A DNA stretch of 64,000 nt from Bdellovibrionota bacterium (GTDB taxonomy: Bacteria; Bdellovibrionota_C; UBA2361; CALJRW01), in assembly GCA_041740355.1 (NCBI GenBank), contig JBGSMD010000048.1, positions 23,912 through 87,911 of the forward strand, read 5' to 3'. The position numbers were made by a program, and so were the translations under genes. The notes below the pieces were generated by a model. The model did not search any database and had not been told where the DNA came from. It saw only the letters and a program-made list of their open reading frames with translations. Below, one piece after another: positions 1 to 26,054 of the stretch (the stretch's first letter is position 1; every line of letters starts with the position of its first letter).

Positions 1-2
1 AT

Positions 3-3000
3 ATTAATGATGGCGATACTGCTAATTTAGTACTTAGCGTTACAACGCAAGGAAATGAAGCTGGGCCAGTTAGTATCGTCTACACTGCGACACTTTCTAG
101 CATTAACAGTAAGTCTGTTCCAATTACTGTTCAAATTAATCCAGATGGTGGAACAGCAACTGCCAGTAGTGATTATTCCAATTTCTCAGGTCGAATAATC
201 ACAATATTACCTGGAAGTAACAGTGGAACTGTTAATGTTTCTGTTGCAGATGATAATTTCTTTGAAAGTACAGAAACAGTTACTGGAACACTATCAGCGG
301 TCTCCGATCCCGGTGTAACAATCACTGGCCCTTCAGCGACAGCCAATATCACTGATAACGATAATACTGCTGCTAGTGTTAACTCTCTTTTAACACTTAG
401 TGGTTTAGGTAGCGAAGCAGGTGCTACTACCATGACTTTGACAGTTTCCTTATCCAAGAAGAACTTTACCGGAAGTCCAATTGTTTTTGATTTGAGTCAA
501 ACCGCTGGAACAGCAACTGATGGTGCGGATTATACAGATTTAACAGGTGCAACTATCTCAGTTGCCAATGGATCAGACATTGGGACCTTCTCATTTAGTG
601 TGGTGGATGATGCCTTATTTGAAAATGATGAAACTTTTACCATTTCACTTTCCAATCCGAGTAATCCCGCAATTAATCTATTTTCTCCAAATGCATCTGG
701 GGTAATTGTTGATAATGATAATGTGACTGCTACAACTAATGCCGTATTAAGCGTTAATAATGGAACGGAGGGAGGATCTGATTTAATTTTCAACGTAACC
801 TTAAGTCAAACTAATAACACGGGCGTTCCAATCACATTTGAAATATATCGGAATGGTGGATCAGCTACTGTAACCACTGATTATAGCGATTATGCAGGAT
901 TAATTTCTGTACCGAATGGTTCAAATGTTGGAACTTTGAATGTTACTATTGTTGATGACGCTTTTTTTGAAAATTCGGAAACAGTAGCAGCTGGGATATA
1001 TAATCCTTCAGATCCAGCCATTCAAATTACAGTTCCAAAAGTTACTGGAAATATTATTGATAATGATAATGTTACTATTGGGGCTGATTTAACAGCAGAA
1101 GTGAATGGAAATGAAGCTGGGAGAGTAAGCATTGTTTATCGCGTAACTTTAACAAATGCTAATAATACAGGTAGCGATATTTTCTTTGACATTGATCCAA
1201 TCGGTGGAACAGCAACTCCAGGAATTGATTATGTAGATTTTACCGGTCGAACAATCCGAGTTGGAAGTGGTAGTAGCATTGGGGAAATTTCAGTTGAAGT
1301 TACCGATGACTCATTAATTGAAAATGATCAAACAGCAGAAGCTGTAATTACTAATAGTAGCGATCCGGCTGTAACTATTGGAACAGCAAACGCTACAGCT
1401 TCTATAATTGATAATGACAATAGTATTGGATCAATTACGGCAGACTTAGTTCGTTTAGTTGATGGACATGAGTCTGGACTGATTAATATAATCTATCAAG
1501 TTGAGCTATCAGAAGTTAACTATACTGACTCTGCTATAACTTTTAATATTGATCCGATTGGTGGGACTGGGACTGCTGGGGTAGATTATGTTGATTTTAC
1601 AGGGGCACAAATTGTTGTTCCCTCCGGATCTCGTTTTGGACAATTTACAGTTGCCGTGCTTAATGATCCCGATTTAACTAGCGATACCGTAGTTGCCCAA
1701 ATTTCTAGTCCTTCCGATACTAGTATCAATTTAGGTACTGATACAGCAACAGCTACTATTAACGATGATGATGCTCCAACTGGAACTTACAACGCTAGTA
1801 TTAGGGATGCTGTTATTCAAGGTAACGAAACTGGTGTTGTAAACGTTAGTTTTGTTGTTGAATTATCTGAACCTAACACTACTGGCTCTGCAATAACATT
1901 TGATATCAATCCATTAGTTGGTGGAACTGCAACTCTTACTTCCGATTATACCAACTTTACCGGTCAAACTGTAAGTATTCCCAACGGTGCTTCGCAAGCT
2001 ACATTTAATGTGACAGTCGTTAATGATACTCTTTATGAAAGTACGGAATCACTCTTTGCAGAAATTTCCAATCCAAGTTCAGGTGCAGTTACGATTATTG
2101 ACTCTGATGCAGTAGGGTATATTTATGACAATGATCAAATTCACTCTGCAGTAATTACTGGAACTGTTAATGGTGCTGAAGCTGGACTTGTCGCGATGGA
2201 GTACACAATCACTATTCCAGTCATTAATAACACTCAAAATCCAATCCAATTTAATATAGCTTCTGCCGGAGGTAGAGCATCTTCAGGAGTCGATTATGAT
2301 TCACTAGTTAGTAGTACTATTTCTATACCAGTTGGAGCCAATTCAGTTTCATTCACTGTTGATGTATTAGATGATCTTCTATTTGAGAATACTGAAAATG
2401 CTATAATTAGTATGTTGAATCCATCTGATCCTGGTATCTATTTGAACTTTGGAAATACCAGAGGTTCGGCTAGTATTATTGACAATGATAACATTGGAGT
2501 TAATGCTGTTTTAGATGTCCTCCAAGATGGTTCTGAAGCAGGACCGACAAGCATGATTTATCGTGTTACATTATCAGAGCCTAATAACACAGGTGGGACA
2601 ATATTTTTTGACATTGATCCGATTGGAGGGTCTGCTCTTCCAGGGGATGCGGTTGAAAATAATGACTATATTGATTTCACAGGATCTCGAATTGGTGTTC
2701 CAAGTGGATCAAGCACGGGAACATTCTCAGTTTCAATTTCCAATGATACTCGTTTTGAAAATATTGAGACGATTGAGACTGAAATTTCAAATCCAAGCGA
2801 TCCCGCCGCGGTATCAATTATTACTGCAGTTGCAACTGGAAATATTAACGATAACGATAATGCTCCAGCAGATGTTACAGCTTCGATATCAACCTTTGGA
2901 ATCGGAAATGAAGATGGACCGACATCTGTTACATTTTTAGTAACTCTTTCTAATATTAACTTTACTGACCAAGACGTAACATTTGATATTAATCCAACAG

Positions 3001-6000
3001 GTGGAACTGCGACTGTCGGAAGCGATTATGTTGATTTCTCTGCAATCCAAGTTGCAATTCCTTATGGACAAGACAGAGCTCTTTACACGATTACAGTCTT
3101 AGATGATGCGTTATTTGAAAATACGGAAACGATAGAAGCAACACTCAGCAATCCTTCTGATCCAGCAATTGATATTACCACAGCAACGGCAACAGGACTA
3201 TTATTAGATAACGATAACGTTACAAATACAATTAATGCAAATCTTTCTGTTACAACTCAAGGCGAAGAAAATCTAACTAATATTGTTTACACAGTAACCC
3301 TTGACGAAGTTAATGATACGCCATTCCCAATTGATTTCACGCTATATGTTGATGGTGGAACTGCTGTTGCTGGCACAGACTACACAAATTTTAACGGAGT
3401 AACGATTAGTGTTCCTGTTGGATCTAACCAAGGTACCTATACAGTTAATGTTACTAACGACTTATTATTTGAAAATTTAGAAACAGCTATTGCTGAACTT
3501 GCTAATCCTTCTGATGCTGCAATTGTAATTGGGACAGCAATTGCAACTGCAAATATTACTGATGACGATGTTACAGTTGCTAATATTGCAGTAACAACTA
3601 ATGGGGATGAAGATGGTCCAGTAGATTTAGTTTATACAATAAGCATTTCTAATACTAATGGTACTGGTAGTGATATCGAAATTGATGTTGATCCAGATGG
3701 TGGCACAGCTACAATTGGATCAGATTATACAACATTTGCGGGAAGTACTGTAATTATACCAGATGGAAGTAGCTCGGTAACACTAACAGTTCCAGTGCTT
3801 GATGATTCATTATTTGAAAACACAGAAACCGTAGGTGCTGAAATCTCAAACCTATCGCATCCAAGTTTAAGTTTAGCTACAGCAACAGCCACAGGAGACA
3901 TTCTTGATGATGAGAATGGAGTTGGTGCAGTAAATGCAGTTCTCTCGACAATTACTAACGGCACAGAATCAGGAACTCAAATTCGCTATCGTGTAACTTT
4001 AGCGACTATCAACAATACTGGCTCTCCAATTACTTTTGATATTGATCCAACTGCTGGAACAGCGATTGCTAATACTGATTACACAACGTTTGCGGGTGCT
4101 ACAATTACAGTTGCTAATGGTGCAAGTACTGGAGACTTATTAGTAACTGTTACTGATGATACTCTATTTGAAAATACCGAAACTGCCACAGCAACTATTA
4201 CTAACGCTAGTGATCCAGCAATTAATATTTCTACAGGCAGTGCCACAGCAAATATTATCGATAATGATAATACAGCTTCCAGCATTAGCGCAGTTCTTAC
4301 TACAACTCAGAACGGCAATGAAACCGGACCAGTTGATATAAGTTTATTGTTAACAATTGGGAAAATTAACAACACCGGAGCACCGATTGTTTTTACAATT
4401 ACTCCGAGTGGTGAAGCAGTTTCTGGAAGTGATTATACAGGATTAACAACGATCTCAATTCCAGATGGCTCAGATACGGGGACATTAATTTTAACTGTAG
4501 TTGATGATCTTTTATTTGAGAATGAAGAGGATGCAACTTTCACTGTAACTGCAGCCACAGATCCAGCGATCACTACAGGTTCAAATACAACGCCAACAAT
4601 TACAGATAACGATAATACTGCGACTAGTATCACAGCAAACTTATCTAAAACAACTGATGGTTTAGAAGGAACAACAAATATTGTCTTTACTGTTACTTTA
4701 GATAAGGTCAACAATACTCATGCACCAATCTTAATAGATATCGATCCAACAGGTGGAACAGCAATTGCTGGCACAGATTATACTAACTTTGCTGGTGCTC
4801 AGATTTCCATTCCTGATGGTTCAAGCAGTGGAACATATACTGTTATAGTTACCAACGACGCTCTATTTGAGAATACGGAAACAGTTCAAGCAACAATCAC
4901 GAATCCATATGATCCTGCTGTTACTTTAGGTACAACATTAGCCACAGCAGATATTGTTGATAGCTCACCACAAGCAACTATCACTGCAACTACTAGCGGT
5001 AATGAGACCGGACCAGTATCAATTGTTTATTCAGTTAACTTAGGCAAAACAAATGACACAGGAGCCACAATAACTTTTGATGTTGATCGTAATACTACTG
5101 AAGATGGATCTGCTGATGTAGGTACTGATTATACAAATTTTGATGGAACAACTGTAGATATTATTAATGGCGCCAGCTCTGCTACTGTTACAGTTCCCGT
5201 CGATGATGATGCTTTGTTTGAGAATAACGAAACAGTTATTGCAACTCTTTCCAATGTTACAGATCCACGCGTAACAATTGCAACAGCCAACGCTACAGGA
5301 ACAATTATTGATAATGATAATCCAACTAATGGAATTCCAATAAACTTAAGTGTTACTCAAGATGGTAATGAAACTGGCCCTGTGTCGATCATCTATACGG
5401 TTACATTAGGTACTGTAAACAATACTCATGCAGCTTTAGTTTATAATTTAAGAAGTACTGGTGGAAATGCCTCAGTTGGAACTGACTATACTGCACTAAA
5501 TACAACAACATCGACAATCACAATTCCAGATGGTTCAAATGTTGGAACATTAACTGTTCCAGTTACAAATGATGCCTTATTTGAAAATAATGAAACTGTT
5601 CAAGCAACCCTTACGAGACAAGCTGTCTTTGATCCCGCTGTCGCTATTGGAACTGGCGTGGCAACAGCAAATATTGTTGACAATGACAATGGCGCAACGA
5701 CTGTTAATGCCTCTTTAAGCACTGTTACTAATGGTACTGAAGCTGGAACTGCAATCCGCTACCGAGTAACTTTGGCCGTTGCTAACAACACGCACGCCCC
5801 AATTACTTTTGCAATTAACCCAACAAGTGGAACTGCTACTGCTGTTAGTGACTATACTTTTGGTACAACTACAATTACTGTCGCAGATGGCGCATCCACT
5901 GGGGACAAAACTGTTGCTACCGTAAATGATATACTTTTTGAAAATACAGAAACAGTTGTCTCTACAATTTCAACACCATCTGATCCAGCAATCAATATTG

Positions 6001-9000
6001 TAACTGCAAGTTCCAGTGCTAACATCACTGATAATGACTCGCCATCTGCTAGTATTGCAACAACAACTCAAGGGAATGAAACTGGTCCAGTGTCCATAGT
6101 TTATACTGTTAGTATTTCTAGGCAAAATGCTACAGGAGTTCCAATTACATTTAACGTAAATCCAACAGGTGGAAATGCTGATGCCACAGATGACTATACA
6201 AATTTTGCCGCAACAGTTGCCTCAATTGCGGATGGAGCATCTTCGACAACAGTAACGGTTCCAGTTGTAGATGATTCCTTATTTGAAAATACCGAAACAG
6301 TTCAAGCAACTATTTCTAGTCCAAGCAATGGTTCCGTGACCATTGGAACTGCTGCTGCGACTGCAAATATTACTGATAATGATAATCCTGTAAATGGAAT
6401 CAATATTGATCTTGCAGTAACTCAGGATGGTAATGAAACAGGTCCAGTAAATATTATCTATACAGCTACATTAGCAACTGTAAATAATACTCATCAACCA
6501 CTTATATATAATCTTTTCCGCAGTGGTGGCAACGCATCTATGGGAACAGATTATACTAACTTAGATGCAACAACTACCACGATTTCAATTCCTCATGGTT
6601 CAAATACTGGTACAAGAATAATTACCGTTGTAAATGATAGTCTGTTTGAAAATGATGAAACTGTTACCGCGACTATGAGTCGACAAGGTACTTTTGATCC
6701 TGCAGTTCGCATTAATACAGCTTCTGATACAGCTGATATTATTGATAATGATAACGGAGCGGGAACAGTCGATGCAGTGTTAGATGTTCAGACTCAAGGT
6801 ATTGAAGGAAGTGTCAACGTGGTATTCCGAGTAACTCTCGAGAATACAAATAACACCCATCTACCAATTAACTTTAATATAGATCCAAATGGTGGAACAG
6901 CAATTACTGGTACTGATTATACTACTTTTGCTGGTGGAACAATTACAGTTGCCGATGGTTCTAACACTGGGACTTTAACAGTTACATTAACTAACGATGC
7001 TCTATTTGAAAATCTAGAAACAATTATCGCCTTGATAACTAGTTCGATTGGTATTGACCCAGCTATTAACATATTAACTTCAGGTGCGACTGCCAATATT
7101 ACAGATAATGATACCACTACCGCAAATATTGCTGTTACAACTGATGGTGATGAAACTGGTCCGGTATCCGCTGTTTACACAATTAGTCTTACAAATGTTA
7201 ACGGAACAGGAGTTCCAATTACAATTGATGTAAATCCAAATGGTGGAACAGCAACGGTAGCTGGGCTTGATTACACTGATTTTACTGGAAGCACAGTTAG
7301 TATTGCTGATGGTGCAAGTAGCACAACTCTCACTGTTCCAGTAGCAGACGATCTATTACTTGAAAATGATGAAACAATAATTGCTAGAATCACTAATCCA
7401 AGTAATGGAGCTTTAACGATTGGAACTGCTAATGCTACAGCAGATTTAATTGATAATGATAATACGCCTGGAAGTGTCAATGCCGATCTAAGTGTAACCA
7501 CAAATGGAGTAGAAGGTGGGGCGAATATAGTTTACCGAGTGGATATTGGTGCAACAAATAATACACATGCCCCAATAAGTTTTACAATTAACCCAACAGG
7601 AGGTGATGCCACAGCAGGTTCTGACTATACAACATTTGCCAGTGGTACAATATCAGTACCTGATGGAGCAAACTTTGGAACACTAACAGTCAACGTTACA
7701 GATGATGCACTTTTTGAGAACTTAGAAGAAGTTGAAGCAACAATTACTAGCCCTAGTGATCCAGTAATAGATATTAATACTGCAAGTGCAACAGCCAGCA
7801 TCACTGATAATGATAATGGAATTACTGCTGTTGATGCCGACTTAAGTGTTACGACTCAAGGTGTCGAAGGAAGCATTAATATTGTTTACACAGTAACATT
7901 AGCTAATGCTAACAACACGGGAGTACCAATCACTTTTGCCTTTAATCCAACAGGTGGAACAGCAATTACCGGAACTGACTATACAGACTTTACTGGTGGA
8001 GTAATCTCAATTCCTAATGGATCAGCAACAGGCACATTCACCGTTGTTATTACAAATGATAATTTATTTGAAAATCTAGAAACAGTAATTGGTACAATTA
8101 GTGCTGCGTCTGATCCAGCAATTAATATTGTTACAGCAACTGCCACCGCAGATATTACGAATGACGACACTACAACTGCGAGTATTGTTGCTACAACAGA
8201 TGGGGATGAAGATGGGCCAATTTCAATTGTTTACACAGTAAGCATTTCGAACACTAACGGAACAGGTCAACCAATTACAATTGATGTTGATCCAAATGGA
8301 GGTAACGCCACAGTTACCAGTGACTTTGCTGATTTTGCAGGAACAACAGTTACAATTCCAGATGGTTCAAGCTCTGATACAGTAACAGTTGTAGTTGTTG
8401 ATGACGCAATCCTAGAACATTTAGAAACAGTAGAAGCTACAATCTCTAACTTAAGTGATGGAGATTTAAGCATTGCAACTGCAAGTGCCACAGCTGATAT
8501 CGTGGATAATGATGATGCCGTTGGTGCTGTCAATGCTGACTTAACTGTTACAACGCAAGGGGTAGAGGGTGGAACAAACATTGTTTATACAGTCACTCTT
8601 GCTAATGTTAATGGAACTCATAGTCCGATCACCTTTGATATTAATCCATCAGGTGGAACTGCTATCGATGGAACAGATTACACGACATTTATTAATGGAT
8701 TAGTTTCAATTGCTGATGGGGCAAGTACAGGCACATATACTGTATTTGTTACTAACGATACGCTATTTGAAAACTTAGAAACTCTGGAATCTACAATTAG
8801 TAATGTTTCAGATACTTCCGTTAATATTAATACAGCAAGTGCTACTGCAAATATCACTGATAATGATAACGCGGTTGGAAGTATTGACGCTGACTTATCT
8901 GTAACTACTCAAGGTGTCGAAGGAAGTATTAATGTTGTTTACACAGTAACTCTAGGAACAGTAAATAATACAGGTGGACCAATTACATTTGCCTTTAATC

Positions 9001-12000
9001 CATCAGGTGGAACAGCAATTGCTGGGACTGATTATACAGACTTTACTGGAGGAGTAATTACAATTCTAGATGGTGAAAGCACAGGAACATACACTGTAGT
9101 AATTACTGATGATAGTTTGTTTGAAGATTTGGAAACAATAATTGGTACAATTTCAGCGGCTTCCGATCCAGCGATAAATATAGCTACTGCTTCTGCCACA
9201 GCTGATATTAGTAACGATGACACAACTACTGCCAGCATCTCTGCCACAATAAATGGTAATGAAACCGGACCGATCTCAATTGTTTACACTGTAACGTTAA
9301 CAAATGAGAATGGAACAGGAACTGCAATTACCTTTGAAGTCAATCCGAATGGTGGAACCGCTATTGCCGGGATTGACTATACTGACTTTACTGCTGGTAG
9401 TGTAAGTATTGCCGATGGTGATACAACGGGAACACTAACAGTTCCAGTTGTTGACGATAATATTCTAGAAAATCTAGAAACAGCGATTGCTGAAATTTCT
9501 AATCCAAGTAACGGAGCAATCACAATTGCTACAGCTAGTGATACTGCGGATATCCTTGATAATGATAACGTAGCTGGCACTGTAGATGCTGATTTATCTG
9601 TAACGACTCAAGGTGTCGAAGGTGGATTTAATATCGTTTACACAATAACTCTTGCAAATCCAAATGGAACTGGCGCTCCTCTTACCTTTAGTATCAATCC
9701 AACAGGTGGAACAGCAACTATTACTGATGACTTTACTGACTTTACTGGAGGAACAATTAGCGTTGCAGATGGTGCAAGTACTGGAACATTCACGGTCTTT
9801 GTTGCCAACGATACATTATTTGAAAATTTAGAAACAGTTGAAGCTACTGTTAGTAGTCCATCAGATCCTGCTATTAATCTTAATACTCCAACAGCTACAG
9901 CTAATATTACAGATAATGATAACGTTGTCGGAAGTATTGATGCTGATCTAAGTGTCACAACGCAAGGTGTGGAAGGAAGTGTGAATGTTGTTTACACAGT
10001 AACATTAGGCACAGTTAATAATACTGGTGGACCAATTACTTTTGCATTTAACCCGACAGGTGGAACAGCAATAACTGGAACTGATTACACTGACTTTACT
10101 AATGGTGTAATAACAATTCTGGATGGGGAAAGTACAGGGACCTATACAGTAGTAATTACTGATGATAGTTTGTTTGAAAATCTAGAAACAATAATTGGTA
10201 CAATCACTGCAGCTTCTGATGCAGCTATTAATATTGTAACTGCTAGTGCTACAGCAGATATTACAAATGACGACACTACTACTGCTAGTATCGTTGCAAC
10301 TACAAATGGTGATGAAGATGGACCAGTATCAATTGTTTATACAGTAAGCATTTCTAATCCTAACGGTACAGGTCAACCAATTACAATTGATGTTGATCCA
10401 AGTGGAGGAAATGCTACAGCCGGTACTGATTATACTGATTTTGCCGGAGCTTCTGTCTCAATTGCCGACGGAGAAAGTTCCGATACGATAACGTTAGTTG
10501 TTGATGATGATGCCATTCTAGAACATTTGGAAACGGTTGAAGCAACAATTTCTAACTTAAGCGATGGAGATTTAAGTATTGCGACTGCCAGTGCTACTGC
10601 TGATATTCTAGACAATGATGACGCTGCAGGTTCTGTTGATGCCGATTTATCTGTTACAACTCAAGGTGTTGAAGGTGGAACAAACATTCTTTACACAGTA
10701 ACTCTTGCCAATGTTAACGGAACTCATACTCCAATTACATTTGATATTAATCCAACAGGTGGAACAGCAACTGATGGTTCTGATTATACGACATTTAGTA
10801 ATGGCCTAATTACAATTGCTGATGGTGCAAGCACTGGAACGTATACAGTATTTGTTACAGATGATTCACTGTTTGAAAATTTAGAGACATTAGAATCTAC
10901 TATTAGTAATGCTTCTGATGCATCAATTAATATTAATACAGCAAGTGCCACTGCCGATATTACCGATAATGATAATGGTGCTGGAACAATTAATGCCAGT
11001 TTAGCAATTACAACTAATGGTAGTGAAAATAATCTGGGAAGTGTAACTGATATTGTAGTTACACTAACTTTAGCAACAATTAACAATACTGGTGCTGATA
11101 TTACTTTTGACTTGGATTTAAATAATGGCACAGCTACTGCTTGGCAAGATTTTAATGTTAGTGGTGCCGGTTTTGCTACTGTTGTAGTTCCAAATGGATC
11201 AAACACTGCAACTATTATAATCCCAGTGATTGAAGATTCTAATAACGAAGGAACTGAAGACCTAGATGTAGTGATTTTTAATCCATCCGATACAGCGATC
11301 AATATAGTAACTGGCACAGTTACACCATTTATTGTTGATGATGAGGCTAATAATTGTGGATCTGGCACGCTTGATTTATTTGAACAATGTGATGACAGTA
11401 ATACTGATAATGCTGATGGCTGTGACAGCTTCTGCCAAATTGAAACTGGATACACTTGTGAAGGCGAACCAAGCGTTTGTCATGAAACTTGTGGTAATGG
11501 TGTTATTACTGGAAGAGAAACTTGTGATGATGGTAATGAAGTAGATGGAGATGGATGTTCTGATATCTGTCGCATTGAAACAGGCTTTAGTTGTTTTGGT
11601 GATACAAGTCTTTGTGCCAGCGGTTGTGGTAATGGAACAGTTGCTGGGTTGGAAGAATGTGACGATGCCGATAATGTCGATGGCGATGGCTGCTCAGCAA
11701 CATGTACACTAGAACCTGTTTGGTCATGTAGTGGCGCAGCACCAAGTATTTGTACTAATACTTGTGGAGATAGCACGCTTGATGCTGGTGAAGCTTGCGA
11801 CGATGGTAATGTCACCGAAGGTGATGGCTGTACGGCAAGTTGTGTAATTGAAACTGCCTATAGTTGTACAGGGACTCCTAGTACTTGTAGCTCAACTTGT
11901 GGCGATGCTGAAATTGCTTCTGATGAACAGTGTGATGATGGCAATACCACAACTGGAGATGGTTGTGATGCTAGTTGTTCAATTGAATCTACATTTACAT

Positions 12001-15000
12001 GTGTTGGTGTGCCTAGTATTTGTTTAGCAACATGCGGTAACAATATTATTACTGATGGCGAAGTTTGTGATGATGGAAATCTAGTTAATGGTGATGGCTG
12101 TTCTAATACTTGTGAAATTGAAATTGGATCAAGTTGTGTAGGGGAACCAAGTGCTTGTACAGCTACTTGTGGTGATAACACAGTTGACGTTGGTGAAGCT
12201 TGTGATGATGGAGATAATACTAACTTTGATGGTTGTAGTGAAGTTTGCCAAATTGAAATTGGTTATGAGTGTAACGGTAATCCAAGTGGCTGCTTAGCAA
12301 CTTGTGGTAACGGCACAATGGAAGGTGGCGAATCTTGTGATGATAAAAATTTCGTAAATGGTGATGGTTGTTCCGCAGCTTGCCGTGTTGAGGTTGGATT
12401 CTCTTGCTTAGGAGAACCTAGTACTTGTGATACAAGTTGTGGTGATGGAATTATTACAGGAACTGAAACATGCGATGATAGTAATGGCATCGGAGGCGAT
12501 GGTTGTTCCGCAACATGTCAGATTGAAGATACTTTTGCTTGTACTGGTGAGCCAAGTAGCTGTTTAGCAACATGTAGTAATGGAACAATTGATGCCGGTG
12601 AAGCTTGTGATGACGGTAATGCGACTAATGGCGATGGTTGCTCGGCAATTTGTGAAGTTGAAACAGGAGAAAGTTGTTTAAATACATCAGGTGAGCCAAG
12701 TCTTTGCTATACAGCATGTGGTAATGGAACGATTGATGCCTTTGAACAATGTGATGATAGTAACAATACTAGTGATGATGGTTGTTCTGCAAGTTGCCTA
12801 ATTGAGATCGGATATGTTTGTACTGGCACGCCAAGCGCATGTGTAGCAACTTGTGGAAATGGACATATTGCCTCACAAGAAGCTTGTGATGATGCTAACC
12901 AAGTAAGTGGAGACGGTTGTAGCAATGTCTGTCTAAACGAAGTTAATGCGACACTTAGCTTTGACCAAAATGGCACAGAAGCTGGACCAGATGCCGTGGA
13001 ATTCTTGGTCACGTTAGATACTGCAAATGCTACGGGCGCAAATCTCAATTTCTTGATTAAGGAAAATGGTGGAGTCGCTAGCACTGGGGTTGATTACACT
13101 GGATTTAATAATCAGATTGTAACTGTCGCCAGTGGAGCAACAACAGGAACATTATCTGTTCCGGTAATTGATGACCTATTATTTGAAAACTCAGAAAGTG
13201 TTGATGTCCTGCTTAAAGATACTTCACACCCAGCAGTTCTAATTGGTACGGATACTGCTACTGGTGATATTATTGATAATGATAATGTGATTACTGCCAC
13301 TCTTGCTGGAATCACGAATGGTAATGAAACTGGCCCAGTTAATGCTGTCTTCCAAGTAACATTATCAGCAATTAATAATACTGGCTCGCCAATAACATTT
13401 GTTTTAAATCCAAATGGAGGTACGGCAACATTAGGTGATGATTATGCTGATTTCACTGGAACGATAGTAACAATTCCAATTGGAAGTGATACTGCAACAT
13501 TCACTGTGATCATTAATAATGATGCTTTCTTAGAAGCCACTACGGAAACATTAATTGCTGCATTATCGACTTCTAGTGATTCAAGTGTGACAATTGGAAC
13601 TAGTACGGCCTCAATTACTATCAGTGATGATGAAGCCTTGTTAGATGATGATTTTGATACAATTCCTAACTATGTGGAATGTCCAACAGGTATTCCATGC
13701 GTGAATACAGATGGCGATCCAAATCCAAACTATTTAGATACAGATTCTGATAATGATGGTATTCTTGATGATCATGAAACTGTTACTGACACAGATGGTG
13801 ACAATATTCCTAACTACATTGATGAAGATTCTGATAATGATGGTATTAAGGATGAAAACGAAAAGGAAACAGATTTTGATGGAGACTTAATTCCAAATTA
13901 TCTTGATTTAGATTCTGATGGCGATTCAATTCCTGATGCCGAAGAAGGTGATAGCGATCAAGATGGTGATGGACAGCCAAATTATCTAGATCTTGATTCC
14001 GATAATGATGGAGTAACTGACACTCTAGAAAAAGGGAACACTAACGATGGTGATGGAATTCCTGATTATCTAGATATTGATGCTGATAACGATGGTATTA
14101 CTGACATTATTGAAGCTGGTGGTGTTGATACAGATCAAGACGGAACAGTTGATGGTTTTGTTGATGCTGACCAAGATGGATTGAGTGATAATATTGCAAT
14201 TACTTCATTAGCAATTCCTGATACCGATGGAGATGGATTACCTGATATGCTAGACATTGATGCTGATGGTGATGGAATTAATGATAATATTGAAGGACAA
14301 GTTAGCATTGGCTACATAGATCCTTCTGGACTTGATGCTAACAGTAATGGATTAGATGATGCTTACGATGCACTAGTTGGAGGCTTTTACATTATACCAG
14401 TAGATACTGATAGCGATGGCGATCCAGATTATCAAGATCTTGATTCCGATGGTGATGGATTAAGTGATTACATTGAAGCTTATGATTCTGATTATGACTT
14501 CATCGCCGATGTCCTACCACTTGGTGTTGATAGTGATAACGACGGGTTGGATGATGGATTTGATACCTTTGATCGATCACTTAGTACTAATTGGGTAGCT
14601 AACCTTCGTGGTTCTAACATCATTTTAAATGATTTGAACTTCGATGGGACTCCTGACTTCCGTGAATTCTGTTCAGGTAGTGATTGTGGTGGCTGTGAAG
14701 AAATATCACCAACTAAGAAAGTTAAGAAGAAAGCTAAGAATGCCAATAATGCAGCAAGTATTCTGCATAACCGAACAATTAGTTTTTCTCAGCGTGCCGA
14801 AGCCTGTGGCTCTCCAGACCTAAGTAAGTCAAGAGTTAAATCTAAGGAGCTTTTAGCACAGTTTAGGGATTTAGTTAATGCGAGCTTCAAAGATACTAAG
14901 CTAGATTGTGCACAGAATGATTGCCTAAATCAATCAAGTAAATCTGTAACTAATAAGCTAAATAGAATTGCTACGCGTTTATTTAAAATCGCTAAGAAAT

Positions 15001-15134
15001 CTAAGCTGGAATACATTGATTATTGCAAACCTGTTCACGATCCTAATGACACTCGGAAGAGATCGGAAGATTACTTGGATGATTTAAATGCGGCAATTAA
15101 AGCATTGCCAAAAAGTCATTTGGTTTGTGATTAA
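3..15134 (+). CDS. Giant surface adhesin, 5' end outside the window (>5000 aa): about 30+ Calx-beta-like repeats, 12 Myxococcus-type Cys-rich repeats, 2 more Calx-beta-like units, Asp-rich TSP3-like repeats, basic helical C-terminal domain
   Basis: Frame is open from position 3 (INDGDTANLVLSVTTQGNEAGPVSIVYT...), upstream of the tracked ATG at 432. Units of ~118 aa carry GTA..G.DY, DD.LFE..ET and A.I.DND motifs. CGNG..E.CDDGN..GDGCS..C..E repeats and DxDxDGxPxYLD repeats follow. Stop TAA at 15132-15134. Confidence 0.93.
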   Translation: MNDGDTANLVLSVTTQGNEAGPVSIVYTATLSSINSKSVPITVQINPDGGTATASSDYSNFSGRIITILPGSNSGTVNVSVADDNFFESTETVTGTLSAVSDPGVTITGPSATANITDNDNTAASVNSLLTLSGLGSEAGATTMTLTVSLSKKNFTGSPIVFDLSQTAGTATDGADYTDLTGATISVANGSDIGTFSFSVVDDALFENDETFTISLSNPSNPAINLFSPNASGVIVDNDNVTATTNAVLSVNNGTEGGSDLIFNVTLSQTNNTGVPITFEIYRNGGSATVTTDYSDYAGLISVPNGSNVGTLNVTIVDDAFFENSETVAAGIYNPSDPAIQITVPKVTGNIIDNDNVTIGADLTAEVNGNEAGRVSIVYRVTLTNANNTGSDIFFDIDPIGGTATPGIDYVDFTGRTIRVGSGSSIGEISVEVTDDSLIENDQTAEAVITNSSDPAVTIGTANATASIIDNDNSIGSITADLVRLVDGHESGLINIIYQVELSEVNYTDSAITFNIDPIGGTGTAGVDYVDFTGAQIVVPSGSRFGQFTVAVLNDPDLTSDTVVAQISSPSDTSINLGTDTATATINDDDAPTGTYNASIRDAVIQGNETGVVNVSFVVELSEPNTTGSAITFDINPLVGGTATLTSDYTNFTGQTVSIPNGASQATFNVTVVNDTLYESTESLFAEISNPSSGAVTIIDSDAVGYIYDNDQIHSAVITGTVNGAEAGLVAMEYTITIPVINNTQNPIQFNIASAGGRASSGVDYDSLVSSTISIPVGANSVSFTVDVLDDLLFENTENAIISMLNPSDPGIYLNFGNTRGSASIIDNDNIGVNAVLDVLQDGSEAGPTSMIYRVTLSEPNNTGGTIFFDIDPIGGSALPGDAVENNDYIDFTGSRIGVPSGSSTGTFSVSISNDTRFENIETIETEISNPSDPAAVSIITAVATGNINDNDNAPADVTASISTFGIGNEDGPTSVTFLVTLSNINFTDQDVTFDINPTGGTATVGSDYVDFSAIQVAIPYGQDRALYTITVLDDALFENTETIEATLSNPSDPAIDITTATATGLLLDNDNVTNTINANLSVTTQGEENLTNIVYTVTLDEVNDTPFPIDFTLYVDGGTAVAGTDYTNFNGVTISVPVGSNQGTYTVNVTNDLLFENLETAIAELANPSDAAIVIGTAIATANITDDDVTVANIAVTTNGDEDGPVDLVYTISISNTNGTGSDIEIDVDPDGGTATIGSDYTTFAGSTVIIPDGSSSVTLTVPVLDDSLFENTETVGAEISNLSHPSLSLATATATGDILDDENGVGAVNAVLSTITNGTESGTQIRYRVTLATINNTGSPITFDIDPTAGTAIANTDYTTFAGATITVANGASTGDLLVTVTDDTLFENTETATATITNASDPAINISTGSATANIIDNDNTASSISAVLTTTQNGNETGPVDISLLLTIGKINNTGAPIVFTITPSGEAVSGSDYTGLTTISIPDGSDTGTLILTVVDDLLFENEEDATFTVTAATDPAITTGSNTTPTITDNDNTATSITANLSKTTDGLEGTTNIVFTVTLDKVNNTHAPILIDIDPTGGTAIAGTDYTNFAGAQISIPDGSSSGTYTVIVTNDALFENTETVQATITNPYDPAVTLGTTLATADIVDSSPQATITATTSGNETGPVSIVYSVNLGKTNDTGATITFDVDRNTTEDGSADVGTDYTNFDGTTVDIINGASSATVTVPVDDDALFENNETVIATLSNVTDPRVTIATANATGTIIDNDNPTNGIPINLSVTQDGNETGPVSIIYTVTLGTVNNTHAALVYNLRSTGGNASVGTDYTALNTTTSTITIPDGSNVGTLTVPVTNDALFENNETVQATLTRQAVFDPAVAIGTGVATANIVDNDNGATTVNASLSTVTNGTEAGTAIRYRVTLAVANNTHAPITFAINPTSGTATAVSDYTFGTTTITVADGASTGDKTVATVNDILFENTETVVSTISTPSDPAINIVTASSSANITDNDSPSASIATTTQGNETGPVSIVYTVSISRQNATGVPITFNVNPTGGNADATDDYTNFAATVASIADGASSTTVTVPVVDDSLFENTETVQATISSPSNGSVTIGTAAATANITDNDNPVNGINIDLAVTQDGNETGPVNIIYTATLATVNNTHQPLIYNLFRSGGNASMGTDYTNLDATTTTISIPHGSNTGTRIITVVNDSLFENDETVTATMSRQGTFDPAVRINTASDTADIIDNDNGAGTVDAVLDVQTQGIEGSVNVVFRVTLENTNNTHLPINFNIDPNGGTAITGTDYTTFAGGTITVADGSNTGTLTVTLTNDALFENLETIIALITSSIGIDPAINILTSGATANITDNDTTTANIAVTTDGDETGPVSAVYTISLTNVNGTGVPITIDVNPNGGTATVAGLDYTDFTGSTVSIADGASSTTLTVPVADDLLLENDETIIARITNPSNGALTIGTANATADLIDNDNTPGSVNADLSVTTNGVEGGANIVYRVDIGATNNTHAPISFTINPTGGDATAGSDYTTFASGTISVPDGANFGTLTVNVTDDALFENLEEVEATITSPSDPVIDINTASATASITDNDNGITAVDADLSVTTQGVEGSINIVYTVTLANANNTGVPITFAFNPTGGTAITGTDYTDFTGGVISIPNGSATGTFTVVITNDNLFENLETVIGTISAASDPAINIVTATATADITNDDTTTASIVATTDGDEDGPISIVYTVSISNTNGTGQPITIDVDPNGGNATVTSDFADFAGTTVTIPDGSSSDTVTVVVVDDAILEHLETVEATISNLSDGDLSIATASATADIVDNDDAVGAVNADLTVTTQGVEGGTNIVYTVTLANVNGTHSPITFDINPSGGTAIDGTDYTTFINGLVSIADGASTGTYTVFVTNDTLFENLETLESTISNVSDTSVNINTASATANITDNDNAVGSIDADLSVTTQGVEGSINVVYTVTLGTVNNTGGPITFAFNPSGGTAIAGTDYTDFTGGVITILDGESTGTYTVVITDDSLFEDLETIIGTISAASDPAINIATASATADISNDDTTTASISATINGNETGPISIVYTVTLTNENGTGTAITFEVNPNGGTAIAGIDYTDFTAGSVSIADGDTTGTLTVPVVDDNILENLETAIAEISNPSNGAITIATASDTADILDNDNVAGTVDADLSVTTQGVEGGFNIVYTITLANPNGTGAPLTFSINPTGGTATITDDFTDFTGGTISVADGASTGTFTVFVANDTLFENLETVEATVSSPSDPAINLNTPTATANITDNDNVVGSIDADLSVTTQGVEGSVNVVYTVTLGTVNNTGGPITFAFNPTGGTAITGTDYTDFTNGVITILDGESTGTYTVVITDDSLFENLETIIGTITAASDAAINIVTASATADITNDDTTTASIVATTNGDEDGPVSIVYTVSISNPNGTGQPITIDVDPSGGNATAGTDYTDFAGASVSIADGESSDTITLVVDDDAILEHLETVEATISNLSDGDLSIATASATADILDNDDAAGSVDADLSVTTQGVEGGTNILYTVTLANVNGTHTPITFDINPTGGTATDGSDYTTFSNGLITIADGASTGTYTVFVTDDSLFENLETLESTISNASDASININTASATADITDNDNGAGTINASLAITTNGSENNLGSVTDIVVTLTLATINNTGADITFDLDLNNGTATAWQDFNVSGAGFATVVVPNGSNTATIIIPVIEDSNNEGTEDLDVVIFNPSDTAINIVTGTVTPFIVDDEANNCGSGTLDLFEQCDDSNTDNADGCDSFCQIETGYTCEGEPSVCHETCGNGVITGRETCDDGNEVDGDGCSDICRIETGFSCFGDTSLCASGCGNGTVAGLEECDDADNVDGDGCSATCTLEPVWSCSGAAPSICTNTCGDSTLDAGEACDDGNVTEGDGCTASCVIETAYSCTGTPSTCSSTCGDAEIASDEQCDDGNTTTGDGCDASCSIESTFTCVGVPSICLATCGNNIITDGEVCDDGNLVNGDGCSNTCEIEIGSSCVGEPSACTATCGDNTVDVGEACDDGDNTNFDGCSEVCQIEIGYECNGNPSGCLATCGNGTMEGGESCDDKNFVNGDGCSAACRVEVGFSCLGEPSTCDTSCGDGIITGTETCDDSNGIGGDGCSATCQIEDTFACTGEPSSCLATCSNGTIDAGEACDDGNATNGDGCSAICEVETGESCLNTSGEPSLCYTACGNGTIDAFEQCDDSNNTSDDGCSASCLIEIGYVCTGTPSACVATCGNGHIASQEACDDANQVSGDGCSNVCLNEVNATLSFDQNGTEAGPDAVEFLVTLDTANATGANLNFLIKENGGVASTGVDYTGFNNQIVTVASGATTGTLSVPVIDDLLFENSESVDVLLKDTSHPAVLIGTDTATGDIIDNDNVITATLAGITNGNETGPVNAVFQVTLSAINNTGSPITFVLNPNGGTATLGDDYADFTGTIVTIPIGSDTATFTVIINNDAFLEATTETLIAALSTSSDSSVTIGTSTASITISDDEALLDDDFDTIPNYVECPTGIPCVNTDGDPNPNYLDTDSDNDGILDDHETVTDTDGDNIPNYIDEDSDNDGIKDENEKETDFDGDLIPNYLDLDSDGDSIPDAEEGDSDQDGDGQPNYLDLDSDNDGVTDTLEKGNTNDGDGIPDYLDIDADNDGITDIIEAGGVDTDQDGTVDGFVDADQDGLSDNIAITSLAIPDTDGDGLPDMLDIDADGDGINDNIEGQVSIGYIDPSGLDANSNGLDDAYDALVGGFYIIPVDTDSDGDPDYQDLDSDGDGLSDYIEAYDSDYDFIADVLPLGVDSDNDGLDDGFDTFDRSLSTNWVANLRGSNIILNDLNFDGTPDFREFCSGSDCGGCEEISPTKKVKKKAKNANNAASILHNRTISFSQRAEACGSPDLSKSRVKSKELLAQFRDLVNASFKDTKLDCAQNDCLNQSSKSVTNKLNRIATRLFKIAKKSKLEYIDYCKPVHDPNDTRKRSEDYLDDLNAAIKALPKSHLVCD
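11352..12935 (+). repeat. 12 tandem Myxococcus cysteine-rich (DUF4215-like) coding repeats of about 45 aa
   Basis: Twelve E.CDD.N....DGC motifs counted in the translation. Confidence 0.9.
13640..14660 (+). repeat. Asp-rich thrombospondin type 3-like Ca-binding coding repeats
   Basis: Repeated DTDGDxxPNYLDxDSDNDG motifs. Confidence 0.85.
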
Positions 15135-15143
15135 GATCTGAAA

Positions 15144-15168
15144 GTTGCTAACATAAAATGTTAGCAAC
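15144..15168. terminator. Probable bidirectional intrinsic terminator
   Basis: Perfect 11-bp stem GTTGCTAACAT-AAA-ATGTTAGCAAC between convergent genes, with A/T flanks. Confidence 0.75.
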
Positions 15169-15203
15169 AATTTATTTGAATTACTGATTCAAAAGCAAAG
15201 TCT

Positions 15204-16097
15204 TTATTTTGCAAGCTGAGGCATTTTCCAATTAATATTTTCTTCGCTTGCCGCAGAAGCAAACAAAGGAAGTGCAGTGCTTGGATAATCAAATGAAAGT
15301 CGAAAAGTTCCAAAGTGAGAAGGTATTACCGTATCAACTTTTAAATCGATTGCAGCTTGTACAGCCTCCTTAGGACTAAGGTGATAATCTTTTAAAATAA
15401 ATTCCGGACGAAAAGCACCAATTGGAAGAATCGCAATGTCTGGTTGATAGAGTTCGGCAATTTCATGGAATTGATTAGAATATCCCGTGTCACCCGAATA
15501 GTACAGCGTACTCTTACCATTAGTGATGATGTACCCTAAGGCCTGATACTTAGATTTAAAAGGATGATAACGTGAACCATTATGCATCGCTGATACTGCT
15601 GTAATTTTTAAGTTTCCAATTTGAATCTGTTCTTGAGGGTTTAAATCCGTAATTTGAGTTTTACTTGTTAAAGTTAGTGGTAAAAAATTTTGGCTGAGTT
15701 TTGGTAGAACGATTCTAGTAATCCTAGGAATTTCTTCCAGTGTCGGTATGTCTAAATGATCATAGTGCGCATGGGAAATAATAACTGCATCAAGCTCACC
15801 GAGTGCTTCAGATTTGATTGGTGCTGAAAAAGTACGACGACTAACTTTACAAAACTCAGAAAGATTAGGATCAAACGCTAAACGTTCATTTTCCCATTCA
15901 ATTAGAAATCCGGCATGACCAAGCCAAGATATTTTTGGTTGGGTATTGTCGGGCTGATAAAAGTTAACCTGCAACTCCTTAGGAATTTTGTTCCAGCCAG
16001 TTGAAATCTGCCAAGATTTATTTGAATCAAACCAGTTTAATTGCCATAAACTTATTAGGATTACGAATAGTAAAAGTATTAAAATTTTTCTAATCAT
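15204..16097 (-). CDS. MBL-fold metallo-hydrolase (NAPE-PLD/RomA-like) with N-terminal membrane anchor
   Basis: Motifs WLGHA, ISHAHYDHLD, YYSGDTGY, LPIGAF, PSHFGTF. Confidence 0.88.
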   Translation of the reverse strand: MIRKILILLLFVILISLWQLNWFDSNKSWQISTGWNKIPKELQVNFYQPDNTQPKISWLGHAGFLIEWENERLAFDPNLSEFCKVSRRTFSAPIKSEALGELDAVIISHAHYDHLDIPTLEEIPRITRIVLPKLSQNFLPLTLTSKTQITDLNPQEQIQIGNLKITAVSAMHNGSRYHPFKSKYQALGYIITNGKSTLYYSGDTGYSNQFHEIAELYQPDIAILPIGAFRPEFILKDYHLSPKEAVQAAIDLKVDTVIPSHFGTFRLSFDYPSTALPLFASAASEENINWKMPQLAK

Positions 16098-17982: not shown

Positions 17983-18380
17983 AAACGATGTTTTGAAATC
18001 AAGTAGAATTGTAAGATAGCAATACTTAAATCAGCAAGAGCAACTGTTAGCCAAAGAAAATGTAGCAGTCCGAGAGAAACAGTGATTACTAAAAACGACC
18101 CAATAGTTAATCTTATCAGCCCAGTGAAGGCCCAGAGGCCTTTAACATAAATTAAATAATTTGTGTCACGAAAGTAAAGTGCCGAGATTAGATATGTACT
18201 TCCTACAGCACAGACAAATGCACCAATAAATCTTAAGTAGATTGTTTCTATTGGAATCTCTGGAATAAATAATAGCTTCAGAACAATTACCGGGCTGATC
18301 ATCAGCAAGATCCCCGTCAGGGTATCCATTAGCCCAATAACTGTATTAAGCAGTAAGATTTGTTTTGTTTTTAATCGCAT
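17979..18380 (-). CDS. Small 4-TM membrane protein
   Basis: Hydrophobic 133-aa ORF overlapping both neighbours in the operon. Confidence 0.75.
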   Translation of the reverse strand: MRLKTKQILLLNTVIGLMDTLTGILLMISPVIVLKLLFIPEIPIETIYLRFIGAFVCAVGSTYLISALYFRDTNYLIYVKGLWAFTGLIRLTIGSFLVITVSLGLLHFLWLTVALADLSIAILQFYLISKHRL

Positions 18381-24203: not shown

Positions 24204-26054
24204 TTATTTTGCAATTTTAAGTCCGCAAGTTTCTTCTAAGGAGCTTAAGTTACTAGCGGAGAATCTAGTTAATCCATAGGCATTTACGTGTAAGTCAACA
24301 AACGATGTTGCTGATGTATACGTAGGATTGATGCCTTGATTATTTACACCTTGTAAATATTGATTTTCTACAACTTTAGTTGCTTTTTTACGTGCGGCAG
24401 AAACTTCTAAGCCACTTTTGACATATTGCTTAACTAAGGCTTTACGTAGTTTTGTTGCACGGCTAAGTCCAATAGTTTTAAGGTTATTAATTGCTGATTT
24501 AAATTTATCTAGTTCAGAACTTAGACTCGATGTTTGTAAGCCTGCGGCACAATTATCAATATTCGTACACTCAAAAAGGTAGACGCCTTGTCCAATAATA
24601 GCATTATATGATTCCCACCCTTTAGTATTTTCGGCAGCAGGATCGAAATCATCAACTTTAGCTTTTATACCTAGCTGTTTGTTGATTTTTTTAATTCTTT
24701 GCTCAATCTTAGATGAGATCAGATTTAGTTGAGCCATATCTTGATCTGCCTGAGTGATGGCTTTTAAATCCGCTTGCTTACATTCAGGTATAATGGAATT
24801 AACTTTTACTTTGACAGCAGTACATTCTGTTTGCAGATTATTAAGTCCATATTCTACTAAAAAGTCTGCGCCAATTGTGTAATCACCAGCTTGATCTTTA
24901 GTTGGTGTCCAATCAATTTTAATTGTTGCTTTTCCATTAGTAGCATCTTCTTCAAAAATTACTTCTTGACCATTTGGTACGTTTGGTTTTGCGCCAGCAG
25001 GTAATCCAGAATAACTGATAATCACAGGAGCTTTTTCTGTATCAAAATAATCTTCATTAATTACTTCAAATGTTAAAGTAGTTGATTGACCAATCTCGAC
25101 GGGGTTAATTGTTACGTTAGATGCACCACAAAGTACTCTGGATTTAGTTTCTAACTCAGGATGAACGCATGTTGAGCAATCTGTTTTTTGAGTTAGTAAG
25201 CTACTGATATAGTTATCAGTGTAAGTCGGCACAGCATTGGCTGCTGCCCAGAACCAAACTCCCACACGTTCAGCAAACTTAATTCCTTCGTATGTATATG
25301 ACTTATTGCGCAGTAATAAAGGTTCAACTTGGTGCTCATTAATTCCACTGACATCAAGTTCTAAATGAATAATTTTAGTAGTTGCTGTGTTGTCAATTGA
25401 AAAGCTTACTTTATCTGGTTGATCAACTGAACTGAAAATCTCTTCACGATAATATGGGGCAGTTCGAGCATAAAAACTTTCTTTTAAACTTGCTTTGTTA
25501 ACGTATGGTCCCGTTCCATCACCCAGTGGAAATGTGCTATCAAAACCATTATGAGTTACATTTTGTTTTTCATGAATTTCTCCATTATTACAATAAAGAT
25601 TTAAATGTCCGTTAAAGGCAAAAACATTAACTTTCGGATTAAGTTCATCCGTAAAATCAACATACAAATGACCAACACTGGCTTCACAATTTTTACGACT
25701 GATATCTAGATCGCCGCTTGTTAAAACTAAATGAAAGAAGTTAGTTGTTTTTCCAGTTGTGGTATCAATTTCTGCCTCTACTGTTAATCTTTTGGCATCT
25801 TGATTGTAATTAAGATCTAGGTAATTAACTTTAACTAAATTATTACGATCCTCAATATCTTGTTGGATTTGGGCATTAGTTTTGGCACAGCCAACGCCTT
25901 CACAAATTACATTTTCGCAGTAATTAATGTCATTAAAATCTGGTATGTGGACGTTATATTCTTTGGTCGTAAGCGAAGGTAAGCCGATTAAAAGTAGTAA
26001 TGCTGATGCGGCAGTAATAATTAAAACCTTTCTTTTCATAACAACCCAAATCAA
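24204..26054 (-). CDS. Exported protein with an Ig-like domain and a basic Cys-bracketed C-terminal helical domain
   Basis: N-terminal hydrophobic segment; Ig-like GLPAGA...WTPT..QAGDY region; C-terminal C-x70-C-x5-C...C pattern. Confidence 0.8.
   Translation of the reverse strand: MIWVVMKRKVLIITAASALLLLIGLPSLTTKEYNVHIPDFNDINYCENVICEGVGCAKTNAQIQQDIEDRNNLVKVNYLDLNYNQDAKRLTVEAEIDTTTGKTTNFFHLVLTSGDLDISRKNCEASVGHLYVDFTDELNPKVNVFAFNGHLNLYCNNGEIHEKQNVTHNGFDSTFPLGDGTGPYVNKASLKESFYARTAPYYREEIFSSVDQPDKVSFSIDNTATTKIIHLELDVSGINEHQVEPLLLRNKSYTYEGIKFAERVGVWFWAAANAVPTYTDNYISSLLTQKTDCSTCVHPELETKSRVLCGASNVTINPVEIGQSTTLTFEVINEDYFDTEKAPVIISYSGLPAGAKPNVPNGQEVIFEEDATNGKATIKIDWTPTKDQAGDYTIGADFLVEYGLNNLQTECTAVKVKVNSIIPECKQADLKAITQADQDMAQLNLISSKIEQRIKKINKQLGIKAKVDDFDPAAENTKGWESYNAIIGQGVYLFECTNIDNCAAGLQTSSLSSELDKFKSAINNLKTIGLSRATKLRKALVKQYVKSGLEVSAARKKATKVVENQYLQGVNNQGINPTYTSATSFVDLHVNAYGLTRFSASNLSSLEETCGLKIAK

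Follow-up and report, generated by a model that had tools for sequence, protein, structure and literature searches.

The window analysed here is a 64,000-nucleotide stretch of contig C48 (JBGSMD010000048.1, positions 23,912 to 87,911) of the Bdellovibrionota bacterium assembly GCA_041740355.1. Two of its genes concern us: that of a giant adhesin, the 3' part of which opens the window, and that of a second exported protein, here called B, on the opposite strand (Table 1). Our subject is the Cys-containing domain with which their products end. In the genome the adhesin frame comprises 5320 aa, its first 828 bases lying upstream of the window. An initial Met and the hydrophobic stretch after it, up to ...LVFAQ, resemble a signal peptide. 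The Pfam families found in it at E ≤ 0.01 are Calx-beta (25 stretches), DUF4215 (11 Cys-rich repeats) and LapA (one domain). At this threshold there is no RTX match, OmpA_C, beta-barrel, autotransporter and two-partner secretion (TPS) domains are likewise not among the Pfam matches, and neither Pfam nor NCBIfam revealed a known anchor. An Asp-rich region with weak similarity to thrombospondin type 3 repeats (TSP3) is the spacer ahead of the tail. Counted per 100 residues, the four blocks preceding the tail have net charges of −24 to −33, against +15 in the block which holds most of it, so that the abrupt change from acidic to basic described in the first-pass annotation is borne out.

The tail of the adhesin belongs to a lineage-restricted superfamily of C-terminal domains of approximately 145 residues, which occur in two forms: one with six Cys residues, here termed A-type, and one with four, termed type-2. 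The tail itself contains eight Cys residues (codons at 14670, 14685, 14694, 14805, 14907, 14922, 15024 and 15126) spaced C-x4-C-x2-C-x36-C-x33-C-x4-C-x33-C-x33-C-D-stop. The last six, from 14694 onwards, are those conserved in the strongly basic A-type family, and a single residue follows the final Cys. A spacing of C-x70-C had previously been read from this tail; it skips the Cys at 14805, one of the conserved six, and has to be abandoned. The presence of a terminator-like hairpin behind the stop codon supports this being the true C-terminus of the adhesin.

When the last 174 residues of the adhesin were used as a phmmer query against 1.84 billion representative proteins, 55 proteins were recovered at E ≤ 1e-3 and 16 at E ≤ 1e-10. 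These proteins range from 90 to 1387 aa, and in 55/55 the match ends eight residues or fewer from the C-terminus. This search is the independent evidence for membership of the adhesin, as the window's own tail was among the sequences, along with those of the 55 homologues, from which the A-type hidden Markov model (HMM) was constructed; the adhesin matches that model over residues 5169/5175–5319 of 5320 [2e-41 and 2e-39]. At 29 fetched loci of other genomes, the domain lies at the end of the open reading frame (ORF) in all 29 ORFs matched by the HMM. The end motif D.RK.T.DY..DL..AI..LP.....C is kept across the family, with the loop motif D.RK.T.DY also conserved. The Cys residues have recurrent contexts: C1 precedes E or T, C2 lies within A..CG, C3 and C4 are part of VC...VC..S, C5 ends AKL.AI..C, and C6 ends LP.....C. 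Over their last 140 residues the A-type tails carry a net charge of +9 to +33 (median +17, n=45). None has a 19-residue window with a Kyte-Doolittle hydropathy above 1.6, which agrees with the original statement that a transmembrane helix is lacking. A signal-peptide-like N-terminus was recognized by a crude test in 22 of the 33 A-type representatives of at least 300 aa.

Upstream of the A-type domain the relatives possess D.CGVCGGDGSSC repeats or, alternatively, TSP3 repeats followed by a WR motif. The repeated linker D-x-CGVCGGDG(S/T)(S/T)C precedes the domain in many relatives; it resembles a motif of animal ADAMTS proteases, which lies in their Cys-rich region, and its six-letter core retrieved only unrelated papers from the full-text literature. 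The public records of the relatives of A-type carriers are metagenome-assembled genomes labelled Bdellovibrionota, Bdellovibrionales, Deltaproteobacteria or Proteobacteria. A profile of the A-type domain including the linker matched 57 of 124 species genomes of the phylum at E ≤ 1e-3, the best match being at E ≤ 1e-30 in 34 of the 57; some of the weaker matches are to type-2 tails. With the adhesin tail alone as a single-sequence query no relative was found in the genome contigs searched.

Type-2 tails follow a common pattern: a CGVCGGDGTSC linker, L-G-C-(E/T)..DI....LDG.A..Q, a basic helix, A..LY..W...WS.P.....C.N..FC..VS, a second basic helix, and (I/V)P.....C at the end. Their four Cys residues correspond to C1, C3, C4 and C6 of the A-type. 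This form is present in 85 of the 124 genomes (52/73 of those of high quality), with 379 matches and 1–17 per genome. It is restricted to a lineage, as had been proposed, since it occurs in 83/91 genomes of the window's order versus 2/33 outside it; one or other form is found in 87 of the 91. In 20 genes sampled from as many genomes the type-2 domain invariably ends 0–7 residues before the stop codon. A signal peptide was recognized by eye in 18 of these, one of the remaining two being cut by a contig end and the other having an unclear start. The sampled tails have net charges of +3 to +14, while most of the passengers, that is, the regions preceding the domain, are negative. A word-indexed search with the type-2 profile, in which candidates were crowded out, yielded at least five proteins, named hypothetical.

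The genome of the window encodes about 10 members, with signal-peptide-like N-termini in all nine read by eye. Their passengers are ice-binding-like, contain DUF4215/myxo_disulf_rpt, Big_13/Big_6/Ca_tandemer or CarboxypepD_reg with a PAAR motif, or belong to no known family; none of the Pfam or NCBIfam models matched their tails. The first-pass annotation had predicted that a profile of the domain would find many paralogues, always C-terminal and on proteins with signal peptides. This is what was observed, signal peptides being present on most rather than all of the carriers and the passenger regions showing no mutual kinship.

Several observations on individual carriers may be added. The 1083-aa signal-peptide protein on contig C51 combines a PAAR motif, CarboxypepD_reg and the type-2 domain. 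PAAR motifs usually go with the spikes of type VI secretion, and one on a Sec-exported protein is odd. Several type-2 carriers from different genomes (L089, L092, L104, L109, L110 and L112) share the motif A-I-T-I-D-E/D-F-D/E/N-G immediately after the signal peptide, which suggests a recurrent passenger family without a Pfam match. Type-2 carriers often cluster in twos or threes within a few kb of a contig (G114:C46, G052:C28, G073:C45, G065:C81, G042:C4 and G114:C43), suggesting tandem duplication of client genes.

Protein B possesses a signal peptide and an N-terminal domain also present on other proteins of the phylum. It ends C-x70-C-x5-C-x107-C-GLKIAK, as the annotation had it. Its tail has an extra helix and extends 30–40 residues past the aligned part, and the combination of a domain ending a few residues before the stop with a basic tail is absent. 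Because of this extension, and of the net charge of −4 on the tail of its paralogue, B is filed as a divergent relative rather than as a typical type-2 member. Homologues of the B tail form a family of their own with only seven proteins; a search against longer proteins again returned only this family (four proteins). The profile of the whole B family found matches in 24 of the 124 genomes, mostly to the first 400 positions of B and on proteins of 250–780 aa. The larger proteins with the B N-terminal domain (about 470–780 aa) end in a third kind of tail, which is type-2.

The paralogue of B on contig C30 is 67% identical over the tail and 70% overall. It is adjoined (C30:168934-172763, minus strand) by a 591-aa relative with a longer, differently arranged tail ending ...HFICE, and the B-type trio is also present in the same-genus genome G041. 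Kinship of B with the A-type proteins of ~600 aa from the largest genus was considered and rejected (best BLASTP E 0.47).

Table 1. Features of the adhesin and B genes in the window, and further members of the domain superfamily in the same genome (contig given before the colon)
Feature	Coordinates	Strand	Length	E	Remarks
Giant adhesin gene, 3' 15.1 kb	1..15134	+			ORF runs past the 5' edge of the window
Acidic Asp-rich region, weak TSP3 matches	13629..14655	+
Cys pair C-x4-C, directly upstream of domain	14670..14693	+			where relatives have the D-x-CGVCGGDGSSC linker motif
A-type C-terminal domain, basic	14694..15131	+			HMM match, family alignment, AlphaFold2
Stop codon	15132-15134	+
Terminator-like hairpin after adhesin stop	15144-15168	+
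B gene, exported protein	24204..26039	-	611 aa		counted from the ATG after the listed TTG (ORF 24204-26054)
B tail, divergent four-Cys type-2 version	24207..24782	-			Cys codons start at 24782, 24569, 24551, 24227
Type-2 HMM match	C61:2471-4234		588 aa	1.8e-31
Type-2 HMM match	C16:165475-166848		458 aa	1.9e-24
Type-2 HMM match	C9:108199-109500		434 aa	6e-23
Type-2 HMM match	C56:28091-29413		441 aa	5e-21
Type-2 HMM match, weaker	C51:4481-7729	+	1083 aa	1.3e-5	C-terminal
Type-2 HMM match, weaker	C30:153257-158482		1742 aa	2e-3	C-terminal
Type-2 HMM match	B		619-aa frame	3e-4
Type-2 HMM match	B paralogue on C30		613 aa	3e-3
Type-2 HMM match, partial	next gene on C30		591 aa	2e-3	inside gene
Divergent A-type HMM match	C48:4625-6907		761 aa	0.009

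The first-pass annotation had placed one shared domain on the adhesin and on B. Compared directly the two tails show no similarity (BLASTP E 2.3), the hhalign probability for their profiles is 0.2–0.3% (0.3%, E 0.19 and 16 columns when the linker is trimmed), and B is not matched by the A-type HMM at E ≤ 10. Both, however, match the type-2 profile. In hhalign comparisons, which were run with the linker trimmed unless otherwise stated, A-type versus type-2 gave 90.5% [1.4e-6, 104 columns], and B versus type-2 gave 97.1% [6e-11, 135 columns] with C1, the C-x5-C hairpin and the next helix in register. Reversed type-2 reached 1.8% against A-type [0.027, 46 columns] and 5.6% against B [0.0068, 87 columns], and the maxima of 30 column shuffles were 0.9% and 4.7%, respectively. 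With the linker kept, A-type versus type-2 rose to 98.9% [3e-17, 157 columns]. At the level of single proteins 56 A-type tails were compared with the type-2 HMM; at E ≤ 0.01 it matches 24, of which one is out of register. A type-2 HMM built from other genomes only detected B at E 3e-4 among the 21,671 ORFs of the window's genome.

The adhesin and B tails would thus appear to be related only through intermediate sequences, by transitive profile homology and the same predicted order of secondary structure elements. One might argue instead that the tails are unrelated, their Cys spacing and Lys/Arg-rich helices being convergent and the profile links arising from composition. The failure of direct comparison would fit this, as would the confinement of the B tail to its own seven-protein family and the differing charge of the paralogue's tail. 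We regard it as very improbable, since the two profiles match type-2 collinearly, with the Cys residues aligned and at values far above the reversed and shuffled controls. Moreover, the N-terminal domain of B sits in the same position ahead of ordinary type-2 tails in other proteins, and the predicted structural elements follow in the same order. What is left of the original claim is therefore kinship through type-2 and not direct similarity. The B tail is read as a divergent type-2 member which, as do all type-2 tails, lacks the C2–C5 pair.

AlphaFold2 modelled the adhesin tail from a 29-row alignment with a pLDDT of 91.9 and a pTM of 0.83. The model consists of a strand (17–19), helices 23–52 and 59–81, a hairpin (84–86/92–96), helices 98–126 and 139–151, and a final strand (156–160). 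The tail is confidently predicted to be a helical bundle capped by a small sheet of four short strands. C2 and C5 are found at the far ends of two long helices, and C1, C3, C4 and C6 in or beside the four strands. These predicted positions suggest one disulfide (C2–C5) closing one end of the bundle, the other two lying in the small sheet by which the first and last strands are tied. The B tail, modelled from seven rows (pLDDT 88.5), shows the same element order, to which it adds a helix and a short extension at the end; in distant B relatives the last Cys falls in the strand equivalent to the last strand of the A-type.

These models are consistent with the disulfide-clamped helical module of the annotation, the Cys residues being placed so as to clamp both ends. 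Its proposed two-fold internal symmetry fares less well: the Cys spacing is symmetric, but a comparison of the first half of the domain with the second gave only 16.7% probability (E 0.0015), which is not significant. Foldseek found no match in the PDB at E ≤ 1e-3, a wide fold search with VIA-align returned only generic bundles, and the ESM Atlas gave no usable match. Of the top 50 PDB entries for the adhesin and B models, 28 are common to both, which shows only that they are the same sort of bundle.

Elsewhere on contig C48, genes for ParB, ParA and Replication initiator protein A (PF10134) are clustered at 12486-16140, approximately 8 kb upstream of the adhesin gene. Based upon this cluster the contig may be a plasmid or secondary replicon and not chromosomal. 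A gene with a HipA_C kinase domain lies close to the contig start (C48:943-1893, plus strand). Within the window an unusual oxidase-like cluster occupies 16090-19650 on the minus strand. It specifies, in order, a 630-aa fusion of a large membrane N-terminal part with FixO and cytochrome c domains, a membrane protein of 133 aa, and a protein of 434 aa with only a sub-threshold match to COX1.

The domain closes Sec-exported, mostly acidic and otherwise unrelated surface or extracellular proteins, among them adhesins with Calx-beta, Ig-like or Ca-tandemer domains, ice-binding-like proteins and Cys-rich repeat proteins; TSP3 or CGVCGGDGSSC repeats are the usual spacer ahead of it. We suggest, with a probability of roughly one half, that it is a handle which keeps exported proteins at the envelope or surface of the cell that produces them. 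A role in targeting and retention is favoured because the domain is strictly terminal on unrelated exported cargo and shows a multi-copy, order-wide pattern, and because a spacer precedes it, the giant fibre has no other known anchor, and the conserved positive charge of the domain is set against acidic passengers. According to this proposal the signal peptide would take the protein through Sec, and periplasmic oxidation of the Cys pairs would then lock a cationic up-down helical bundle, with C2–C5 at one end and two further disulfides in the small four-stranded sheet which ties together the first and last strands of the domain. After the outer membrane has been crossed, the rigid cationic knob might act as the common handle for retention, through an anionic envelope component or a dedicated receptor. 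The genome has a type II secretion operon on contig C54 (GspC with PDZ, GspD, E, F, G and pseudopilin-like genes; a search for T2SSL in this genome was negative), and hence a route for folded, disulfide-bonded proteins exists which these clients could presumably use.

Several findings weigh against this proposal or the family on which it is based. Eleven of the 33 A-type representatives of at least 300 aa fail the crude signal-peptide test, several of them starting with V or appearing truncated. The charge of the B paralogue's tail indicates that positive charge is not universal. The predicted helical bundle is of a generic kind, and the PDB fold searches gave it no informative structural neighbour. 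The window's adhesin tail matches the type-2 HMM at only E 0.048, and the A-to-B link therefore rests on profiles and not on the two sequences themselves. GspC is found in 114 of the 124 genomes, inside and outside the order, and so near-universal a type II system does not explain the restriction of the domain to one order. Lastly, no partner gene, conserved neighbour or discriminating machinery was found for the domain: both members on C48 are flanked by housekeeping genes, and among 24 related loci no neighbour recurs at more than 5.

Other functions have to be considered. The domain might serve passage rather than retention, being recognized in its folded state by an outer-membrane translocon, type II or other, and perhaps removed later, in the manner of the C-terminal domain (CTD) of type IX substrates. 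A strictly C-terminal position on unrelated signal-peptide cargo and several to many clients per genome are what one would expect of such an export signal; a fold which must form in the periplasm fits an exporter of folded proteins, and the type II operon is at hand. Nevertheless we consider an export signal unlikely, given that the type II system pervades the phylum while the domain is confined to one order and that no dedicated machinery was found beside the members, either on C48 or at the 24 related loci. It is also not obvious why a recognition tag should need to conserve a strong positive charge, and the adhesin-type passengers would still be left without an anchor. Alternatively, the cationic bundle might itself be the working part of the protein, sticking it to anionic material outside the cell (lipopolysaccharide of prey or neighbours, extracellular DNA, acidic polysaccharide) and neither sorting nor anchoring its own carrier. 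The strong and conserved net positive charge and the adhesin-like passengers are in keeping with this, as are relatives labelled Bdellovibrionota or Bdellovibrionales, groups which include predatory members. It would, however, deprive the giant fibre of any visible link to its own cell, the tail of the B paralogue is not basic, and a strictly terminal module on unrelated passengers, some of them weakly enzyme-like, better fits a handle than a ligand domain; an adhesive end therefore seems doubtful to us.

A purely structural part, in which the disulfide-locked bundle merely stabilizes the ends of repetitive proteins, nucleates folding or joins chains, is in our estimation quite improbable. The domain does follow repetitive spacers, and helical bundles often mediate assembly, but it is also found on small, non-repetitive proteins of 320–460 aa, and it is sorting or anchoring domains that typically show an order-wide, multi-copy distribution on unrelated cargo. 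A more ambitious and, we concede, rather doubtful idea is that this Bdellovibrio-like order has a surface-display pathway of its own, so far undescribed, whose clients are tagged by the domain. By analogy with type IX secretion and its CTD, a dedicated component of the outer membrane could possibly read the folded domain as a C-terminal signal. Alternatively it might be a disulfide-locked periplasmic stopper, unable to pass the pore through which the acidic fibre is threaded, and would then mirror the N-terminal retention of LapA-type adhesins.

The domain is of interest because new envelope machinery has repeatedly been discovered by way of C-terminal sorting and anchoring domains, as with sortases, exosortases, rhombosortase, myxosortase and type IX secretion. 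The present domain marks hundreds of exported proteins, counting the 379 type-2 matches in 85 genomes and the A-type set, in an uncultured, Bdellovibrio-like lineage. Its profile would annotate the surface proteome of the order and help in the search for the partner system; should no partner exist, the domain would still represent a new cationic envelope-binding module.

Its fold and Cys pattern are unlike those of known tags. In Pfam-A and NCBIfam the two tails gave nothing but chance-level rows at E ≤ 1, in accordance with the original view that they resemble no known sorting or anchoring terminus. No description of the domain was found in Pfam, NCBIfam, the PDB fold searches or the full-text literature searched, and the family is uncatalogued in the libraries searched. 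RTX or type I substrates are defined by RTX nonapeptide repeats and the lack of a Sec signal peptide; the adhesin was rejected as one of these, there being no RTX in Pfam and a signal-peptide-like N-terminus. An autotransporter or two-partner secretion protein was also rejected, with no such Pfam match and a helical tail. In OmpA-family proteins acidic TSP3 repeats lie ahead of a peptidoglycan-binding OmpA_C domain. The adhesin has a similar arrangement of an acidic TSP3 spacer before a terminal, here putatively envelope-binding, domain, but without an OmpA_C or beta-barrel match and with a helical terminal fold. Four-helix bundles in the PDB, such as talin rod domains and plant pectin methylesterase inhibitors, share the up-down helical architecture, the latter being disulfide-stabilized as well.

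Tripartite CTERM signals resemble the domain in being lineage-specific C-terminal tags on many surface proteins. According to one report, they are short, consist of a signature motif, a transmembrane helix and an Arg cluster, and are cut by an intramembrane protease, and GlyGly-CTERM proteins need the type II system in order to reach the surface (10.1101/2023.06.07.544157). Unlike these and LPXTG signals, the domain is soluble, ~145 residues long and devoid of a transmembrane segment, and none of the NCBIfam CTERM models match it. The retention module of LapA-type adhesins offers another parallel, in that a compact folded end domain could hold a giant, Ca-binding, repetitive adhesin at the outer membrane, and Pfam recognizes a LapA domain in the giant adhesin itself. 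LapA proper is secreted by the type I route, is retained through its N-terminus and carries a C-terminal RTX signal, whereas the present adhesin has a Sec signal peptide, no RTX match, and its special domain at the C-terminus.

The type IX CTD of the Bacteroidota is a beta-sandwich of about 80–100 residues without conserved disulfides, unlike the domain described here, which is modelled as a helical bundle and has four to six conserved Cys residues. No type IX CTD model in Pfam or NCBIfam gave a row at E ≤ 1 for either tail, and SprA (PF14349) was not found in the window's genome, nor was it matched in any of 14 control genomes. In its working, however, the CTD is probably what the domain is most like among the systems compared: both are folded terminal domains on many unrelated Sec-exported proteins of a single lineage, with several to many clients per genome.

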